A model generated the notes under the pieces. The model was not told the DNA's origin. It was given only the letters and a program-made list of their open reading frames with translations, and did no database searches. Made by a program: the position numbers and the translations under genes. From a virus (Duplodnaviria > Caudoviricetes), in IMG/VR virus record IMGVR_UViG_3300022824_000016, positions 14,588 to 78,587 of that record: a DNA stretch of 64,000 bases. One strand, given 5' to 3'. Positions 946-45,018 of the stretch are shown here, in pieces (the first letter of the stretch is position 1; every line of letters starts with the position of its first letter).

Positions 946-3900
946 TTCATTCCTCCAACAGAAACCTTATTCACAGAGCATGATTTCAAAACCAACGGCG
1001 GCATTTTTTCCTGTGGCAAAGCGTACCGCTTTTGCGCTCGGTCCGCAAGAATATCAAAATCATGTGCAGTAAAAAACGATTGTGCGGCGGCGCGTACACG
1101 ATCATCATGCTGCCCGCTTCGATGTTCCATCTTGGATATTCTTCCAGCCGCCGCATGGCGTTCCAGAGTTTTCAATTCCTCAATCAACCATTTTGATGAC
1201 GGTCGATACCAGCCACCATTAACAGCTTCCGTAAAGCGTGTCATCAGAATAGGCACACTCCATACGTTAGAAAACCATCCTTGTTTTTTTCCTGAATCGT
1301 CTTTGATCTTTTTGCTGTCATAACGCCGTGGAACATGGTGCCAATGGAATCCCATCAGCTTGAGTTGATGCTGGCATGTATCACCAGGACGTCCAATTTG
1401 TTCCACGCAAAATTTTACGCCGCGTGAATCCTGTGTATTCTCTCCATACCAGGCTGCCATGCAAGCCGCGAATCCCACGATCTGCGCAGAGTTGATCCGG
1501 TTCGATGTCAGTTCGGCAACCTGATAATCGAATTCATCGCCAAATCGATTCCGTGTCATTGATACGCAGGTTCTGTCTTCATCTTCTTTGCCAAGTCCAT
1601 CAGCCGTATCGATTCCGCAACTGTAGCTATAACCGGCTTTGGGTTCTTCGTACACCAGAAACTTGTCAAAGGTCTCCGTCTCAATTTCTTCGTTAACCGG
1701 CAAAAGTGGAATCAGCACCCACTTGTATTGCTGACCGCGATCTGAATTCCAGAGAATCCGTATACGGTCTTTATCATAATCAATGATCGATTCGTCCGGC
1801 TCAAAACCATCATCGATGGAATCGCCGGTAATCGCATAAGCTTGAACCGGTTTCTTTCTTTCTTTTGTATCGCCTTCCACTTCATAAACATGGTTCTCAA
1901 TTTCCTGAATTGTTTCAAGATCAAAAACGCTGTCGTGGACTCCCGTTAAAGCTTCAAAGTCATCGGCTGCCATCTGAGCCAACCAGATTTTTTGGGTGTG
2001 GTTCTTGCAAGCCTGAAGATAATTGAACTCCCAAAACCATTGCTGTTCAATCGGCATCCTCCAGTCTGCACCCACTACATTAGCCAGATAGGGAGTATTG
2101 CGAATGTAGAGTTCGCAACGCTGCACGTGCTTCCGCGTTACCTCCTGCCGCTTTCTCATAAAATCGGCAGGCACAGGAAATTTACGCACCCAGTCTGGCT
2201 CCGGATACAGATCCGGAACCATAGCCCAGGGAATAAATACCGGGCAAAGCCGGGACTGTCCTTTCGGCCAATCAGCTTTTGCCGACCGCCATGTATTTGC
2301 CAACCAGCCAGTATTGCCTCCTCCAGTTCCTTCAAAAACCATGAACAGGTTGCGCGACGAGTGGGTGGCACGCAGCAGACCTTCCTCAATTACCTTTTCC
2401 GGTTTGGGAATATCAGCGAGTTCCGACACATGAATACAGTTATGGACAGAACACTGCAATGTGGTGAAAGAATGCGCGGCATCATTTATTTCCACGTCGT
2501 AGAACGATTCGCTAAATCCTTCATCAACTTTTTCGATCTTCACATCAATTGCTGAACCATCTTCGTTGTAATGCCAGTGACGAGCTTTTTCGTGGGAGGG
2601 AATATGTTCAAAATTGAGGGCCATTCGATAGCGATAGCCACACATCCCCACCATTACAAGTTTCCAGGTTTCGCGCTTTTTACCACCCCATGGTGATTGC
2701 ATAGCTGCCTGGTGGTAGATCGATGCCCATCCGAAACCCAGTGAAGCCACCAAATCGCGCATCTGAAGCGTGATGGCTTCGCAGATACAGGGAGCAATGA
2801 CGTGATTGGAGTTTTTTTCGCAGTGGCCATCGCCATCGAGATAGCCCTTCAAGAGATAAAGGCAAAAATCGCGGCCTGCTGTCCAAATCCAATCTGGTAC
2901 ATGCTTGTCGTACTTACGACCAAAGTTTTCTGCCAACCAACGGGCCAACCATGCACAGGAAATGCAAACCTGTGAACCGTTTTCACCGTGATTCTTTGTG
3001 TGTATGTATTGGTCTTCGCCTAGCACTGCTTTGATTGCTGTTTCAGTTCGTATAGCCTCACGACGATGCACGGTGAAAGTTACTTCCGACAAATATGGCT
3101 TTTTGTTGAGTTTTCCTATTCCGCTTTCATGGCATGATCCTTCAGCAAGATAAAGCCCGGCAAGGTAGGCAACTACCGGCGAATACGTCAGTTCAAATTC
3201 AATCGCATGCGCTGCATCGATCTTTCCGCGCAGCATTTTTTGTAATGGTTCCCCATCGTTTTCAGCGCGGATTTCGCGGACTGGATAACGTACAAAATCG
3301 CCTACGCCTAAATCTTCTGCTTCGCACCAACCATCAGGAGTCCAGATGCGATGGTCGAGCGTTGATTCAAGCGGCTGATAGCATCCCCATAGCTTGAGTA
3401 TCCGTGTCGGTTCACCATGACGCGAAGTTTTGAAGGAACACTTTACTGCTGCCAATCGACCATCATGGGTCAAAACCCGGTCGCCAAGCGCAAGATCCTC
3501 AATGGCTTTTACACCACCATTAGCAACGCGTACAGGTGTACCCGGTACCAGGCAGGTCGGTGTCCAACCTTGTGCAATGCCGGTGGCCTGCATACCAGAC
3601 TGAATCGAAAGGACCGAACCATTGTCGTAGGCACCCTTCGGCAAGCGCCGCGGCACCAACCACCAGGGACAACGATTATAAGCCGTGTCCAAAATGCGAC
3701 CGATCAATTCCGACTTATCGGATTGCACGGAAGCCATCACGGCCTGAGTATGCGGAACAAAGAGTAAACGATGAAGGAATTTAAGCGCAGTTTTTGTTGT
3801 GACGCCAACCTGTCGCGCCTTGAGAATCATCAGTTCGATGGAGACCTGTTTTTCGTCAAAGCCAGCAATAACTCCATCAAATATTTTCTGAGATAATCGA

Positions 3901-4518: not shown

Positions 4519-5355
4519 TCATTCGCAGAGATTGTAGACCGACATGCAGGAACGAACCGGGAACAGTGGAATCTGATCCTCATCGACACTTTCTATGTAG
4601 CGAAAAACATCTGCGCAAGTTGGAATGGGAACCGTACGGCCGTCTTTGGTGATAACGGATTTTGAACAGAAGCGCGATGGAATCTTGTCGGACCGAAACC
4701 ATGTTCGATAGTTTTCTGGATCGTTCGCAGCCTCGTTGGCATGGTTCTCCAAGTCAATCAAACGTGTTTTCAGCTCGGGAAAGAAGCTGATTGCACGTTT
4801 CAATTCTCCCAAACCGGTCATGATGCAAGGCCAACAGCCAACTCTCGTTGCTCCCATAAGATAAAGTGGATTTGGGCGGATATTGTACTTTTCCATCATA
4901 GCGAAACATTGTTCTGCAGACCAGTGCAGCAAAGGCCGCTTGATCCAGTAGCCACCTGCATCATTGAGCCATTCCGACTCGCTCAACTTAGATCTGGAAT
5001 AGGATTCATCGGCGCGAATGCCCTGATAACTGGTCACCTCGTCATCCAGAGATTTAAAATAACGATGCAGCGGAAAAACTTTCAATTCCTGAGTGCAAAA
5101 ACGCGAATGCACACCGGGAACCATTTTTCGGTCAACGACTAATTGTACAAAGCCATCGGAATACTTCTCGCTCTTAAGTGTGACAAGAGCGCCATCCAAA
5201 ACCGTCTGATTGATCTCTTCAACGTAGGCATAGGTAAGTGGATGTTCCCAACCCGTATCACAAAACACAGCCGTAAATTCCGACAGATTTTCCTTTGCCC
5301 AAAGAATCAGAGCCGTCGAATCTTTACCTCCGCTAAAGCAGACAATGTTTTTCAT
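4519..5355 (-). CDS. Phosphoadenosine phosphosulfate (PAPS) reductase family protein
   Basis: PP-loop FSGGKDS, DTGWE, GIRADES and RVGCWPC motifs. Confidence 0.85.
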   Translation of the reverse strand: MKNIVCFSGGKDSTALILWAKENLSEFTAVFCDTGWEHPLTYAYVEEINQTVLDGALVTLKSEKYSDGFVQLVVDRKMVPGVHSRFCTQELKVFPLHRYFKSLDDEVTSYQGIRADESYSRSKLSESEWLNDAGGYWIKRPLLHWSAEQCFAMMEKYNIRPNPLYLMGATRVGCWPCIMTGLGELKRAISFFPELKTRLIDLENHANEAANDPENYRTWFRSDKIPSRFCSKSVITKDGRTVPIPTCADVFRYIESVDEDQIPLFPVRSCMSVYNLCE

Positions 5356-5360
5356 TCAAA

Positions 5361-6218
5361 TTATTCCTTTAGCAGTCTCTGCCGAATTGGTACCAGTTTT
5401 TCCTGCATCGAACTTGCCATAGGGAAAAGATCATCCAGATCGTCATCCTCGCCAAAGACGGCATTTGTTTCCTGCTCTTCTTTTTCCCTGGTGCCAGCCG
5501 GACCAAAGACTGCTTTGCCAATAAATGTTGGTCCCTTCGGCGATGGCAGGAAGCCAAGCGCAGTATCAATGGCGTTTCTGTCCTTATCACCACCAGGCAA
5601 CTGACCGTAAGTAATGCGTGCTTTGGTGATCAGCGGATGAGAAGAGAGGGCAATCACTTTGACCATGCTTGCGGAAGCGGCTTGCATCGCAAACAGAATC
5701 GATCCGGTCAACTGCCGAATATCCAGTTTGGCAGCAATCGCCACAGCCTCCCAGGGAATTCTTTGCCGATCTCCCTCGGGAAGCGAGTCGTACTTTTTGA
5801 GGAATGCCGCAATCACTTCATCCTGCGCCGAAAAACGCATTGCATTAAGAACGCCTTTCAAACCACCCTCAGCATTTTTGAAAAGCGGTGTGATCTGAGG
5901 AGCTTCCGCAACTTTTTCAGGCTTGATCTTCAGACGCTTCAATGCTTCCGCTACCCGATTCTCTTTCTTCAGCGGTCTCGGAACCTGTTTAACGTCCGAG
6001 GAATTCTTTTTCCCTGATTCCGATCCATTCTTCAATCGGTTCGTCGCTTGCACCCTGTTCTTCGCGGATGAGGTCTTCTTCGGTTGGAACACGAGTGACA
6101 ATCGCTTCCCGTCTTTTTGCTGGTTCAGGCCACTGTTTGGCGAATTGTCTTTTTTGCGTGTCATCGATACCTGCCAGTGCTTCTGCAATCTGTTCAAATG
6201 CTGCCACGAGTCGTTCAT
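5361..6218 (-). CDS. Hypothetical protein, possible terminase small subunit; true start probably near 5990
   Basis: Position upstream of terL; helical, basic N-part; the 5' end overlaps another credible ORF. Confidence 0.4.
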   Translation of the reverse strand: MNDSWQHLNRLQKHWQVSMTRKKDNSPNSGLNQQKDGKRLSLVFQPKKTSSAKNRVQATNRLKNGSESGKKNSSDVKQVPRPLKKENRVAEALKRLKIKPEKVAEAPQITPLFKNAEGGLKGVLNAMRFSAQDEVIAAFLKKYDSLPEGDRQRIPWEAVAIAAKLDIRQLTGSILFAMQAASASMVKVIALSSHPLITKARITYGQLPGGDKDRNAIDTALGFLPSPKGPTFIGKAVFGPAGTREKEEQETNAVFGEDDDLDDLFPMASSMQEKLVPIRQRLLKE

Positions 6219-12110: not shown

Positions 12111-12360
12111 TCAACAGAAGAAAGGGGGATTCATGCACATCTTATTCACTATCGCTTTGCTTTTTGTGGCGGGGGCTTTGCTGGCATATGCAAAACGGCA
12201 TCTTTCCCGCCTGCTCTATATCATTCTGTGGTTTTTTGCCTCAGCCCTAACAATCACGGCAGGCTGGATCTTTGCATTTTGAAATTGAGTCCGGATTCCG
12301 GACTGCACCAGGTAACTGCACATTCAACCGGCGAAATGCGCCAGACGGTGAGGAAAAACA

Positions 12361-14534: not shown

Positions 14535-14855
14535 ATGAAATTTACGCTCGAAATTGAATTGGGCAATGACGCCATGCAAAACGGAACCGATGTGATCAAG
14601 GCAATTCAGGAAAGTCTGAAGGGTGAAGAAAGTCTGCCTTTGGACGCGGGTACTGCGGGACGACTTTGGGACGAAAACGGCAACCTTGCAGGCAGCTGGA
14701 AAGTAATAGAAGATGCGCCAACGCTGCCTGTATCTGTCGTGGCTTCTGTACTCCCGGCTGAAACACCGCATCCTTTTGATGACCACGACACCATGGGATT
14801 CTGCTCTGTTTGTGGCCGGAGAAAGTATGATCCGGACGCGAATCACATCGAATAA
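14535..14855 (+). CDS. Hypothetical protein, paralog B (MKFTLEIELG family)
   Basis: N-terminus MKFTLEIELGNDAM. Confidence 0.65.
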   Translation: MKFTLEIELGNDAMQNGTDVIKAIQESLKGEESLPLDAGTAGRLWDENGNLAGSWKVIEDAPTLPVSVVASVLPAETPHPFDDHDTMGFCSVCGRRKYDPDANHIE

Positions 14856-41449: not shown

Positions 41450-41679
41450 GAAGAAACGATGAGGGGAATCAACATCTTTGCTGGCTTTATTCAATGTTGT
41501 GTGAGGTATCCGATTTGGTTTTTTCTTGTTTACACGGTTCTTACCACGATTCATCCGGACCGCCTGATTTGGTTTCTTTTTTGGGTTTATGTGTCATTGG
41601 GGATACTGACCACGTTGGTTCAAGGAGTGATCGAAGTAATTGAAAAGAACGACACCAAAAAGTAAACGCAGGAGACAGC

Positions 41680-44211
41680 ATGTATCAGATTTTGGAGGGT
41701 GATGTGACTGAACAACTAAAGACGCTGGAGAATGCGTCAGTGGACGCCATTGTCACGGATCCTCCGTATGGATTGGAATTCATGGGCAAAGACTGGGATG
41801 CTCCGTGGAAGACCGATCATAGACAGGGATTTTACGGTACCATGCAGATTTCTGACAGCCCATTTGGACGTAGTAAGGTCCGCACCGGAAATGGCGCAAG
41901 TTACGGTGCGGATGCGCACATCATGCAGGCGCTGCAGGACTGGCATTTCCACTGGGCCAGTGAAGCTCTACGTGTGTTGAAGCCGGGTGGTTATCTACTG
42001 GCTTTTGGTGGCAGTCGTACTTATCACCGCTTGGCTTGCGCTGTTGAGGATGCGGGATTCGAAATCCGTGACCAGATTATGTGGATCTACGGATGCCTTG
42101 ATGAGCAGACTGAACTTGTGGCCGAAAGCGGCGTAAAGCCATACCATAAAGCCAGAATAGGAGAGCGCATATTGTGCTACGATCTTGAGAACGGCAAGTA
42201 TTCTTACCAGCCGATTCTGGAGATTGTCGAGTATGACTACTGCGATACCGCCTATCGTCTTATCGGAGATTTTGGGGAGCAAGTTGTTTCCAGAAACCAT
42301 CGTTGCATTGTTGAACAAAACGGAAAAGAAGTATTCCAAGTTGCCGAAACGCTCGGGACCGAAGCGCGTGTACCCATTCTGGAAGGTTTGCCAGAGTTGC
42401 AGCAAGCCCTTTCCGACCTTCAATCGAACACAAGCGGCGCGAAAGAAATCATGCAGCCCGAAGTGTTCCAAGGCGCTGATTGGGAAAGCGAACAGCAGAG
42501 CGACGCCACTAGAGCAAAGGAAAGGGGAGGTAATTACCTGCGTGGTTTGCCGAGCCAAGAAGTGGGTTCCGTCTGCATGGTTGAAGAAAGTAAAGAAGCC
42601 AACATGCAGCCGCAAGTGCAATGGCGTTCTCAGGGGCGCGGAGTGGAAGAAACATGCGCACGAGGGACGGATGCACTGGACGTCGGAGTCGGAGTCGGCG
42701 ATGAAGGTACGGATGACAGGCGAGAGCAATCCGGGGTGGAAGGGCGGGCTAACCTACCGGAAACGCAAGGGCGCTTATGCGGATCAGTCAATCAAGTACG
42801 TCCGCTGTCCGCTGGAATTCCAGAGCATGGCGCGGAAAGACGGCTATGTTATGGAACATCGACTGGTGGTGGCAAAGGCGATAGGACGGCCATTGTTGCG
42901 AGTGGAAGTGGTTCATCATCGGAACCGTCGTGCGGTGGACAACGAACCGACAAATCTGATGCTGTTTGCCACCAATGCGGATCACAAGGCGTACGAGCAT
43001 GGCGCGGACATCAAACCGTTGTGGTGCGGGTTTTGCCATTCCACTATGTCGGAAAAGTCTGGTGCTTGCATGTGCCGACGGGAGCCTTTGTCGCTGTCCG
43101 TAATGGCGTAGCTTTTCCTACCGGAAATAGCGGTTTTCCAAAGTCGCTGGATGTAAGCAAGGCAATTGACAAAACGGCTGGTGCCGAACGGGTGATTGTT
43201 GGCTCAAAGAAAGATTTGCCGGGATACTCACTGAAGCCAGATAAGGGACGTGGTGTTTATTCCCCAGATGGACGAAGCAGTGAAATAGAGTGTGCAATTA
43301 CAGCACCAGCGACCGACGCTGCAAAGCAGTGGGCTGGCTGGGGTACAGCGTTGAAGCCGGCGCATGAACCAATAGTTGTTGCGCGTAAGCCGTTGATCGG
43401 TACCGTGGCGGCAAATGTTTTGAAGTACGGAACCGGAGCACTGAACATCGATGCGTGCCGCGTGGGTGAGTTTGTCAATACAACTCCAAGTGGTGTGGAC
43501 CGGCGCAATCAAACATTGGCCAATATGGGATATCGGCCCAACGCGTATCAGGTTGGACAATCAGAATTGAGCGGGGCCATTGGCCGCTGGCCTGCCAATG
43601 TAATTCACGATGGCAGCGAAGAAGTGCTTGCAGTTTTTCCTGACGCACCTGGAGCGCTGGGGGTGGTTACCGGCGAGGAACCGAGTTCTCCCACTCAGGA
43701 TATTTACGGAAACTTCAAAAAGCGCGCTACCTCCAATCCGCGCGATGGGGAGCCGAGTGCCCAGCGCCGCTACGCAACCAAAGGCGCAACCAACTTCGCA
43801 GCGTTGCCGGGCGAACGTCGGATCGATTCGGGTTCTGCTGCGCGGTTTTTCTATTGTGCGAAAAGTAGCCGCCAAGAACGCAACACGGGCTGCGAAAATC
43901 TTGGCAAAAAACCACTGCTTTGGTCTTTAGGTACCCAATCGCCGGGAACTTTTCAGGCGAAAGGTACCGACCACAGTGCGCAGAATTTCCATCCGACGGT
44001 CAAACCTATTGCTTTAATGGCTTATCTCTGTCGATTGGTAACGCCGCCGCAAGGGACCGTACTGGATCTGTTTATGGGTTCGGGATCGACGGGCATCGCG
44101 GCATTGCGCGAGAAATTCAATTTTATCGGTATCGAAGTAAACCCGGAATACGTGGAGATTGCGCGGCGGCGCATTGAAGCGGATGCGCCGTTATTCAACA
44201 AGGAGGGGTGA
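41680..44211 (+). CDS. N4/N6 DNA methyltransferase (beta class) with an intein
   Basis: VTDPPY, LKPGG, ALKPAHEPI, GRWPAN, RFFYCAK, HPTVKP and LDLFMGSGST motifs. Confidence 0.92.
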   Translation: MYQILEGDVTEQLKTLENASVDAIVTDPPYGLEFMGKDWDAPWKTDHRQGFYGTMQISDSPFGRSKVRTGNGASYGADAHIMQALQDWHFHWASEALRVLKPGGYLLAFGGSRTYHRLACAVEDAGFEIRDQIMWIYGCLDEQTELVAESGVKPYHKARIGERILCYDLENGKYSYQPILEIVEYDYCDTAYRLIGDFGEQVVSRNHRCIVEQNGKEVFQVAETLGTEARVPILEGLPELQQALSDLQSNTSGAKEIMQPEVFQGADWESEQQSDATRAKERGGNYLRGLPSQEVGSVCMVEESKEANMQPQVQWRSQGRGVEETCARGTDALDVGVGVGDEGTDDRREQSGVEGRANLPETQGRLCGSVNQVRPLSAGIPEHGAERRLCYGTSTGGGKGDRTAIVASGSGSSSEPSCGGQRTDKSDAVCHQCGSQGVRAWRGHQTVVVRVLPFHYVGKVWCLHVPTGAFVAVRNGVAFPTGNSGFPKSLDVSKAIDKTAGAERVIVGSKKDLPGYSLKPDKGRGVYSPDGRSSEIECAITAPATDAAKQWAGWGTALKPAHEPIVVARKPLIGTVAANVLKYGTGALNIDACRVGEFVNTTPSGVDRRNQTLANMGYRPNAYQVGQSELSGAIGRWPANVIHDGSEEVLAVFPDAPGALGVVTGEEPSSPTQDIYGNFKKRATSNPRDGEPSAQRRYATKGATNFAALPGERRIDSGSAARFFYCAKSSRQERNTGCENLGKKPLLWSLGTQSPGTFQAKGTDHSAQNFHPTVKPIALMAYLCRLVTPPQGTVLDLFMGSGSTGIAALREKFNFIGIEVNPEYVEIARRRIEADAPLFNKEG
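42094..43128 (+). mobile_element. Intein (345 aa) in the methyltransferase
   Basis: Starts CLDEQTE (Cys139); block-B-like SRNHR; ends VWCLHVPTGAFVAVRNG...TGN with a +1 Ser. Confidence 0.88.
42185..43111 (+). CDS. HNH homing endonuclease in the +1 frame inside the intein
   Basis: CxxC zinc pairs, GESNPGWKGG, YVMEHRLV..K.IGR.L...EVVHHRN...DN...NL. Confidence 0.8.
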   Translation: MRTASILTSRFWRLSSMTTAIPPIVLSEILGSKLFPETIVALLNKTEKKYSKLPKRSGPKRVYPFWKVCQSCSKPFPTFNRTQAARKKSCSPKCSKALIGKANSRATPLEQRKGEVITCVVCRAKKWVPSAWLKKVKKPTCSRKCNGVLRGAEWKKHAHEGRMHWTSESESAMKVRMTGESNPGWKGGLTYRKRKGAYADQSIKYVRCPLEFQSMARKDGYVMEHRLVVAKAIGRPLLRVEVVHHRNRRAVDNEPTNLMLFATNADHKAYEHGADIKPLWCGFCHSTMSEKSGACMCRREPLSLSVMA

Positions 44212-44250
44212 TGTGTCTGAAACGAGAGATGAAAAGAAAGGAGGATCGAG

Positions 44251-45018
44251 ATGCTGATTGACGATTTGGTAAAACCGGTGAAACAGGAACGAAGCGATCT
44301 GGATGAACGTCTGTTGCAGGCGGATCGAAATATTTCAGAAGCTTGGATAGGGTTGACCAAACGGTCGATGCTGATTGGTTGGGAAGGTGCTTTCATCAAG
44401 CGCTACAACGGGTGGGAGCGCTTGGGCTACATGGATGAAAAGCACTATCGGGCTGACAAAGGCATTGGCCGTTCGACCTGGTACAAGATGGTTGGGCTGG
44501 CAGAACACTTTCCCAATGTGAGCAAAGAACAGTTTCTTGCCATGTCAATCGAAAACGCCGAGCAACTGGCAGTAGTGCCACTGGAAGCACGAGAGAATCC
44601 AGCATTGCTATCGGCAGCGGCCACAAAAACAGCGCGGGAATTTGAGAACGATTTGGTATCTGACACGGCGGAGCGCGAGAACAAGCCGGTGAGCGAAGTC
44701 TTTGTCACCATGAAATGGCGTATCAGGCAGGCGCAGCGCGAAGTGATCGAGCGTGGATTGGAAGACTGGCAGCATGAGCACGGCATCGACGATCCCGGCT
44801 ACGCGTTGGAGTTGATGATTGCTGAGGTGCACGACCGACCGACGCTGGTTGGTTTTATGACCGAATCCATTCCGCGACTGAGTCGAGCAGTAATGGCGGC
44901 TGAAAGCCAGGAGGATCTGGAAGATCTACGCAAGCTGTTTGCCAGGCACATTCAGGAGATGGGTGAAATCCTGAAGATGTGTTGCGGAGAATTTAATGCC
45001 GAGCAAGAAGCGGCTTAA
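44251..45018 (+). CDS. Hypothetical protein
   Basis: 255-aa ORF with a GGAGG RBS. Confidence 0.65.
   Translation: MLIDDLVKPVKQERSDLDERLLQADRNISEAWIGLTKRSMLIGWEGAFIKRYNGWERLGYMDEKHYRADKGIGRSTWYKMVGLAEHFPNVSKEQFLAMSIENAEQLAVVPLEARENPALLSAAATKTAREFENDLVSDTAERENKPVSEVFVTMKWRIRQAQREVIERGLEDWQHEHGIDDPGYALELMIAEVHDRPTLVGFMTESIPRLSRAVMAAESQEDLEDLRKLFARHIQEMGEILKMCCGEFNAEQEAA

Follow-up and report, generated by a model that had tools for sequence, protein, structure and literature searches.

The stretch of DNA analysed here, hereafter the window, comprises 64,000 nucleotides (nt) of a virus of the Caudoviricetes (positions 14,588 to 78,587 of IMG/VR record IMGVR_UViG_3300022824_000016) and carries an N6/N4 DNA methyltransferase (methylase) gene in which one segment codes in two frames. 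The methylase frame of this segment encodes both lobes of a predicted HINT splicing domain, and the +1 frame encodes a predicted HNH homing endonuclease. That this dual coding is real and under selection is near certain. Taken as a whole, the explanation that we consider likely is that the insert is a class-1-type intein at the ...W-x-Y-G|S-G-F-P-K-S site of the phage methylase, which is predicted to splice, and that the HNH protein is translated separately and would act in homing.

The gene for the methylase precursor (41680..44211, + strand, as are all features below) is an unbroken open reading frame (ORF) of 843 codons plus stop with AGGAG upstream. It matches Pfam PF01555 (E 8e-32), with the match divided over its N and C ends, and phrog_67 of PHROG (E 8e-69). 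The N-extein (41680..42093, 138 aa) ends in ...DQIMWIYG and is colinear with intein-less methylases up to 42093, and the C-extein (43129..44211, 360 aa plus stop) starts with SGFPKSLD. Between them lies the intein coding sequence (42094..43128), which runs for 345 codons from Cys1 (TGC) to Thr-Gly-Asn345 (AAT) and is followed by Ser+1. It comprises the HINT N-terminal lobe with blocks A and B (42094..42423, residues 1-110), a stop-free read-through linker that is predicted to be disordered and appears to be a passenger translation of the HNH gene (42436..42996, residues 115-301), and the HINT C-terminal lobe with blocks F and G (43006..43128, residues 305-345), which ends in ...VWCLHVPTGAFVAVRNGVAFPTGN. 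The +1 frame is open from 42161, has its first TTG at 42185 and from there forms an ORF of 308 codons (42185..43111), so that both frames are jointly open across 927 nt. From a conserved ATG, the predicted HNH gene (42233..43111) encodes 292 aa and stops at TAG 43109-43111. An earlier reading of the window from its sequence only had described an insert with intact intein termini, a middle without nuclease motif, and a +1 ORF of 308 codons with zinc-finger pairs and an HNH motif, both frames staying open for more than 900 nt, and each of these descriptions held up in the analyses below.

The insert shows the features of a class 1 intein. It lies in frame at a conserved site, is absent from homologues and has colinear exteins on both sides; it starts with Cys1, has a block B of the Thr/Ser-x-x-His type and ends with Asn followed by Ser, and its N and C lobes together form a HINT fold in the structural model. 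The same insert is carried by 62 related loci, where it spans 269-427 codons with 0 stop codons. In all 62, it opens with CL(S/D)(E/D)xTE.. after W-x-Y-G and closes with ...GAFVA(R/V)RNGxxFxTGN before SGFPK, Ser+1 following directly. In an alignment of 53 sequences, C1, Q63, V65, H69 of block B, R70, T343, G344 and N345 are invariant and position 66 is S or T, which gives a block B of TxxH type; TDQIVSRNHRC has the typical form of block B, and VWCVxVPTGAFVARRNGKxFxTGN that of block F/G. AlphaFold modelled both lobes as beta structures with high confidence (predicted local distance difference test, pLDDT, 93-98 for residues 1-110 and 94-98 for residues 305-345), and residues 115-301 without secondary structure (pLDDT ~40). 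Searching this model with Foldseek returned exclusively inteins and hedgehog HINT domains as top matches, the best being the AceL NrdHF intein (6zgq, E 4e-6), which was also matched by the family profile among PDB sequences (E 4e-8). A Pfam scan of the frame-0 intein gave no intein model at E<=0.1 and no family match for the middle of the insert, and the HINT assignment rests on the family profile, the AlphaFold model and the motifs.

The product of the +1 frame matches PHROG 10730 (E 9e-15), and 41 of its 44 close relatives match Pfam HNH_3 (best E 1.3e-11). In the alignment of these 44 sequences, eight invariant Cys residues are arranged as two CxxC...CxxxC pairs, corresponding to two zinc ribbons, and among the residues of the HNH motif, conservation is complete at H228, H229 and H251 and at least 90% at H209 and N241. 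Model matches and His/Asn/His residues together place the protein in the HNH_3 family. The AlphaFold model (mean pLDDT 84) is confidently folded from residue 1 to ~270, and its only disordered part is the tail that overlaps the HINT C-lobe. Searching PDB sequences with the HNH profile gave weak zinc-ribbon matches only, which leaves the PHROG and Pfam matches as the basis of the HNH assignment. Of 427 relatives in the protein database, most are gene calls of their own on short contigs, and one is an NCBI-annotated 'HNH endonuclease' of Azotobacter vinelandii. No second copy of the HNH was found in the 78.6-kb provirus record to which the window belongs.

The two-frame layout is conserved far beyond the window. 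An IMG/VR search with the HNH retrieved 114 relatives, of which 80 loci were fetched. In 78 of these, the entire HNH gene is spanned by an open frame that lies one base upstream of the HNH frame and matches the N-extein, HINT-N, HINT-C and C-extein. The third frame is open for merely 1-195 codons. A search with the HINT lobe, which is independent of ascertainment through the HNH, likewise placed the HNH in frame +1, in 76 of the 78 loci that it gave. The layout also occurs in 11 of 15 genome contigs (three further ones being of a HINT-less type described below), with labels including Plastorhodobacter (Plastorhodobacter daqingensis), CPR bacteria, Kiritimatiellae, Spirochaetes, Bacteroidetes, Chloroflexota, Gallionella and others, in an A. 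vinelandii prophage (CP092752.2) and in an uncultured phage of 484 kb whose base composition is very different. Altogether, more than 130 IMG/VR contigs and genome contigs of numerous bacterial phyla have it, and the HNH remains out of frame down to ~35% HNH identity.

Selection on both frames was assessed in two ways. First, synonymous codons were shuffled 2000 times within the HNH frame and stops were counted in the methylase frame. For the window, 12.6 methylase-frame stops were expected per shuffle and 0 were observed, and none of the 2000 shuffles was stop-free; in each of the 62 loci at most one shuffle in 2000 was (P<=0.0005). A methylase-frame stop requires an HNH codon ending in T before AA, AG or GA. 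Indeed, among the 62 loci none of the 4778 HNH codons preceding AA, AG or GA ends in T, compared with 26% at 12278 other positions, which makes the mechanism of stop avoidance visible. Second, because the homologues were too diverged for a formal ratio of non-synonymous to synonymous substitution rates (dN/dS), the per-frame selection check suggested by the sequence-only reading was run as per-frame conservation and codon-position variability. Both the best-conserved frame and the third-position variability switch from frame 0 to +1 and back to frame 0, at ~42364 and ~42994. At both ends of the insert frame 0 is the coding frame (third-position variability 0.60), and in this frame the HINT lobes are under purifying selection at the codon level. 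In the centre (42364-42993), the +1 frame is coding (0.61 at its own third position) and frame 0 is not conserved. Between these zones, where the HNH N-terminus overlaps block B (42232-42363), all three codon positions are constrained.

The insert is patchily distributed. Among the 80 IMG/VR methylases nearest to the window C-extein (43-58% identity), 79 had a readable junction and none of them contained the insert. The intein-less methylases most similar to the window read ...DAGFEIRDQIMWIYG|SGFPKSLD, that is MWIYG|SGFPKSLD, which is exactly the predicted splice product and agrees with the empty allele ATCTACGGA/AGCGGTTTT that had been anticipated from the sequence. The closest intein, that of locus L002, shares 84% and 76% identity with the window in the HINT lobes and 72% in the HNH, compared with 46-47% in the exteins; across the loci, intein and HNH identities rise and fall together and both exceed extein identity. 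In addition, same-family inteins of only 145-199 codons occur in L236, L172, L214 and L206 (starting at 2029, 2501, 2501 and 2221), in which the HNH is gone or cut to the portion overlapping the HINT N-lobe. They look like mini-inteins formed after nuclease loss, and such HNH-deleted forms are predicted by the homing cycle after fixation. Patchiness, identity contrast and the clustering of contexts described below lend indirect support to a homing function, and the insert with its HNH is best regarded as a putative mobile element.

On this explanation, the methylase precursor would splice, discarding the linker and restoring YG-SGFPKS, and the HNH would be translated on its own from the internal GGAG and ATG at 42219 and 42233. 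The nuclease would then cut intein-less methylase alleles near the insertion site, and repair would copy intein and HNH together. The start codon is shared by many loci: of 56 distinct loci, 29 have an ATG at intein offset 136-148 (position 42233 of the window), and GGAG, GAGG, AGGA or AAGG, resembling a Shine-Dalgarno sequence, stands 5-16 nt before it in 16 of these 29, compared with a background of 16% of random 12-nt windows. In the window, the candidate Shine-Dalgarno sequence is the GGAG at 42219..42222.

Several observations weigh against this explanation. The penultimate residue of the intein is Gly344, invariant in the family, in place of the usual His of block G. A penultimate His is common in inteins but not universal; of the inteins that lack it, some splice and some splice poorly. 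The window HNH scores 17.6 bits against HNH_3 (PF13392), below the Pfam gathering threshold of 24.8, and Foldseek returned no significant PDB match for the whole HNH model, as expected for a beads-on-a-string model (predicted template-modelling score 0.46). The GGAG precedes the ATG by 10 nt, the long end of the usual range, and only the 29 of 56 distinct loci share the ATG position, most others having an ATG at offsets 82-103 and a few no early ATG. Finally, a promoter and terminator scan gave no promoter-like site on the + strand inside the methylase gene, and RNA folding around the HNH start was the same as in shuffles (z = 0).

The HNH is also found outside HINT lobes. Fourteen IMG/VR loci carry bare, HINT-less copies (L078, at 2983-3477, and L052, L057, L062, L064, L065, L067, L070, L072, L073, L074, L075, L077 and L081), as do genome contigs of Cupriavidus, Reyranella and Deinococcaceae, and L254, L255 and L257 are also of this type. 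In the bare loci, the YG-SGFPKS junction is intact, and a homologous HNH occupies frame +1 of a stop-free insert that begins just past SGFPKSL and ends ahead of GTALKPA, ~7-10 codons downstream of the intein site. L078 and L066, the latter with its HNH inside HINT lobes, share 71% nucleotide identity over a 426-nt cassette and nothing else. In an HNH tree from a quick search, in which the number of context switches is approximate, the bare copies are scattered over at least four positions between HINT-embedded ones. A further context is seen in L046 (1811-3949), where an HNH of the same family, in antisense orientation, separates two broken methylase ORFs, the N part ending at 3557 and the C part restarting at 2875, just before ...NYGSGFPKS; HINT lobes or intein halves were not seen there, and the locus may represent a fractured or split methylase or else an intron. 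All contexts found belong to the same methylase family, and the inspected bare, antisense and HINT-embedded copies lie within ~10 codons of YG|SGFPKS, from which we argue that the nuclease would recognise this region. These comparisons suggest a mobile HNH cassette whose context changes while its target region stays the same. More tentatively, and with rather less conviction than for the intein itself, we propose that the HNH gene with its stop-free -1 frame is a portable 'frame-transparent' cassette, which may occupy either an intein slot, where its passenger peptide would be spliced away, or a methylase surface loop, where the peptide would stay, and which may have switched context several times. 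The out-of-frame state would then be long-lived, uncoupling nuclease dosage from host-protein synthesis, and not the brief step toward an in-frame endonuclease that current models assume.

The same observations bear on the proposal that the HNH is a free-standing selfish gene which merely uses the intein linker as a safe harbour, having another target or a phage function and leaving the intein unmobilised. The changing context of the cassette, with its several bare placements in the tree and the pair of loci that share nothing besides it, would fit this proposal, as would the antisense copy that splits the methylase of L046. However, the cassette was found in one methylase family only and, in the inspected copies, about ten codons or less from YG|SGFPKS, and the co-variation of intein and HNH identities above extein identity likewise speaks against it. 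We regard the safe-harbour proposal as unlikely.

It is quite unlikely that the HINT domain is inactive and that the 345-residue insert is retained in the methylase in the form of a tolerated loop, which has been the proposal for the ShiLan domain discussed below. The Gly at the penultimate position would be in keeping with such a loop, and the bare HNH inserts a few codons downstream suggest that stop-free read-through loops are tolerated in this methylase family; moreover, the methylase may be dispensable, as has been argued (PMC11855218). Nevertheless, C1, His69, Asn345 and Ser+1 have been retained at a mean column identity across the aligned inteins of only ~35%, and the codons of the HINT lobes are under purifying selection in the methylase frame. 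In addition, the insertion point falls within WxYG|SGFPKS, which is better conserved than any other motif of the region, and not in a variable loop, and a LAGLIDADG intein at the same site has an identical TGN|S end.

Regarding how the HNH product is made, the sequence-only reading had left a choice between a separate protein and a frameshift product. Programmed +1 ribosomal frameshifting would yield a fusion of N-extein, HINT-N and HNH. The HNH ORF does overlap the HINT N-lobe, the +1 frame of the window is open for 72 nt before the ATG, and the lack of an evident internal promoter implies that both products would come from one mRNA. Yet in ten loci a +1-frame stop lies 3-15 nt ahead of the conserved ATG (ORF start offsets 124-136, ATG 136-139), leaving hardly any space for a shift out of the methylase frame. 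The HNH homologues are similar in amino-acid sequence from the conserved Met onward (query residues 14-17 of the TTG-started ORF), the motifs resembling Shine-Dalgarno sequences are enriched upstream of the ATG, and a conserved slippery site was not identified. The upstream stops and the start of similarity at Met favour internal initiation on the methylase mRNA over +1 frameshifting, which we consider very unlikely. Of the two options, separate translation of the HNH by internal initiation is thus the better supported.

We give next to no credence to the view that the second frame is open by chance, in a decaying relic of an in-frame HNH intein with two compensating frameshifts or through an assembly error. 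A real frameshifted chimaera does exist: P0001 (607 aa, JGI metagenome) begins like the HNH, with MTTAIPP..., and then passes into the read-through frame of the methylase and into C-extein sequence. Being either a frameshifted copy or a sequencing error, it is the sole 'in-frame' match, no other in-frame (longer) HNH fusion having been found among the relatives. Against this stand more than 150 independent contigs with the same frame relation, whose genomes range from AT-rich to GC-rich, the shuffle test with its total avoidance of T, which contradicts chance, and the well-folded HNH model. Equally hard to credit is a group I or group II intron carrying the HNH ORF and removed as RNA: phage group I introns commonly carry HNH genes, but an Rfam scan of 41500-44400 matched neither introns nor any other RNA family at E<=1, no stop interrupts the host frame, and the ends of the insert encode a predicted HINT fold with its catalytic residues.

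Out-of-frame endonucleases in inteins have been described before. In actinobacteriophages, inteins were reported with the homing endonuclease in a separate frame or strand, the host proteins of these non-canonical inteins being DNA polymerase, minor capsid, terminase and thymidylate synthase; where the nuclease is out of frame on the same strand, it is endonuclease VII-like and in frame 3 (bioRxiv 10.1101/2025.01.02.630785). The window element resembles these inteins in having HINT in the host frame, a same-strand endonuclease ORF in another frame inside the intein, and a stop-free host frame, and the authors likewise infer that a free-standing endonuclease gene invaded an intein (10.1101/2025.01.02.630785). 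It differs in its nuclease, an HNH_3 protein with two zinc ribbons, in its frame, +1 (frame 2), and in its host, an N6/N4 methylase. The ShiLan domain is a stop-free insertion in mycobacteriophage N6/N4 methylases with an HNH hidden in frame 3 and no detectable splicing domain (Genes 2025, PMC11855218); both 2025 reports come from one group (PMC11855218; 10.1101/2025.01.02.630785). The window element shares with it the methylase family, an out-of-frame zinc-finger HNH_3 in a stop-free insert, and a patchy and mobile character (PMC11855218; PMC9957025). In contrast to the ShiLan domain, which is thought to stay in the protein, it has a full predicted HINT domain, uses frame +1 and sits at YG|SGFPKS, the ShiLan site being further downstream, after ...VAVKPYG in Mycobacterium phage Starcevich. 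The ShiLan HNH was not retrieved by tblastn with the window HNH at E<=1e-5. The bare copies of the window HNH are ShiLan-like, but differ from ShiLan in site and frame, and these HINT-less relatives link the ShiLan kind and the intein kind.

The element of the window thus combines both kinds published in 2025, a predicted true intein in a methylase and an out-of-frame HNH, here in frame +1. A literature search found no paper on a true methylase intein with an out-of-frame HNH. Since the out-of-frame layout itself was published in 2025, this is a new combination and not a new principle. The sequence-only reading was accordingly right that hidden HNHs in methylases have rarely been noted (PMC11855218), but the novelty that it implied for an endonuclease in another frame of an intein did not stand, such inteins being already on record (10.1101/2025.01.02.630785).

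An allelic form of the splicing module is the intein of Starcevich gp66 (PMC9957025). It lies at the same site with homologous HINT lobes, WLYG|CLTDDVEVLT ... GAFVARRHGLVFITGN|SGFPKSLDVSKAIDK, and has the same TGN|S end and penultimate Gly. However, it carries a canonical in-frame LAGLIDADG endonuclease, so that one polypeptide splices and homes, whereas the window has an out-of-frame HNH. The HINT scaffold is therefore already known, and only the nuclease module differs. Because mycobacteriophages have this scaffold at this very site with an in-frame LAGLIDADG, the element most likely arose when a free-standing HNH gene entered the endonuclease slot of an existing intein, or took that slot over, in a register that was stop-free by chance or became so later. 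Canonical HNH inteins (Dalgaard et al. 1997, as cited in 10.1101/2025.01.02.630785) also pair HINT with an HNH-type nuclease, but within the intein polypeptide. Fractured genes resemble the window in having the endonuclease as a separate gene between two intein lobes (Dassa et al. 2009, PMC2677866); there, however, the host gene is broken into two ORFs and splicing occurs in trans, whereas the host frame of the window reads through.

The element lends support, as an unusually clear case, to the 'splicing first, nuclease later' view of intein origins, as the nuclease of one predicted HINT scaffold at a single methylase site is a LAGLIDADG in frame in some phages and an HNH out of frame in others, and the same HNH cassette is found intein-free a few codons away. 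The preprint on actinobacteriophage inteins called successful integration of such kind extremely rare and expected non-homing secondary ORFs to decay fast or to shift into frame (10.1101/2025.01.02.630785). In contrast, the size and age of the present family show that overprinted endonucleases can be stable. In practical terms, gene callers mis-annotate these loci, and cultured hosts exist in A. vinelandii and P. daqingensis.

A few loci show further arrangements. In Starcevich (L164, 403-3561), gp66 contains the allelic LAGLIDADG intein and a downstream ShiLan domain in one methylase gene; the hidden HNH of the latter is the ORF at 2349-2858 (HNH_3, E 9e-8), and gp65, directly upstream of gp66, is an annotated free-standing HNH gene. 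On the Curtobacterium pusillum plasmid pCPAA3 (L253, 1769-3271), a more distantly related HNH occupies part of an open frame of 500 codons which begins inside an uninterrupted methylase gene and extends beyond its 3' end, an arrangement unlike all others. NCBI annotation splits the A. vinelandii locus into a separate 'HNH endonuclease' gene and a truncated 402-aa methylase. The intein-carrying methylase gene of this prophage (L082) has a second hidden ORF in frame +2 (5343-5759, 138 aa), which matches phrog_2340 'endonuclease' (E 2e-12), has CxxC pairs and an HH..H motif, and sits in a further stop-free insert between ...ARFF and YCAKAS. Together with the HNH, it would give two overprinted nuclease genes in one host gene.

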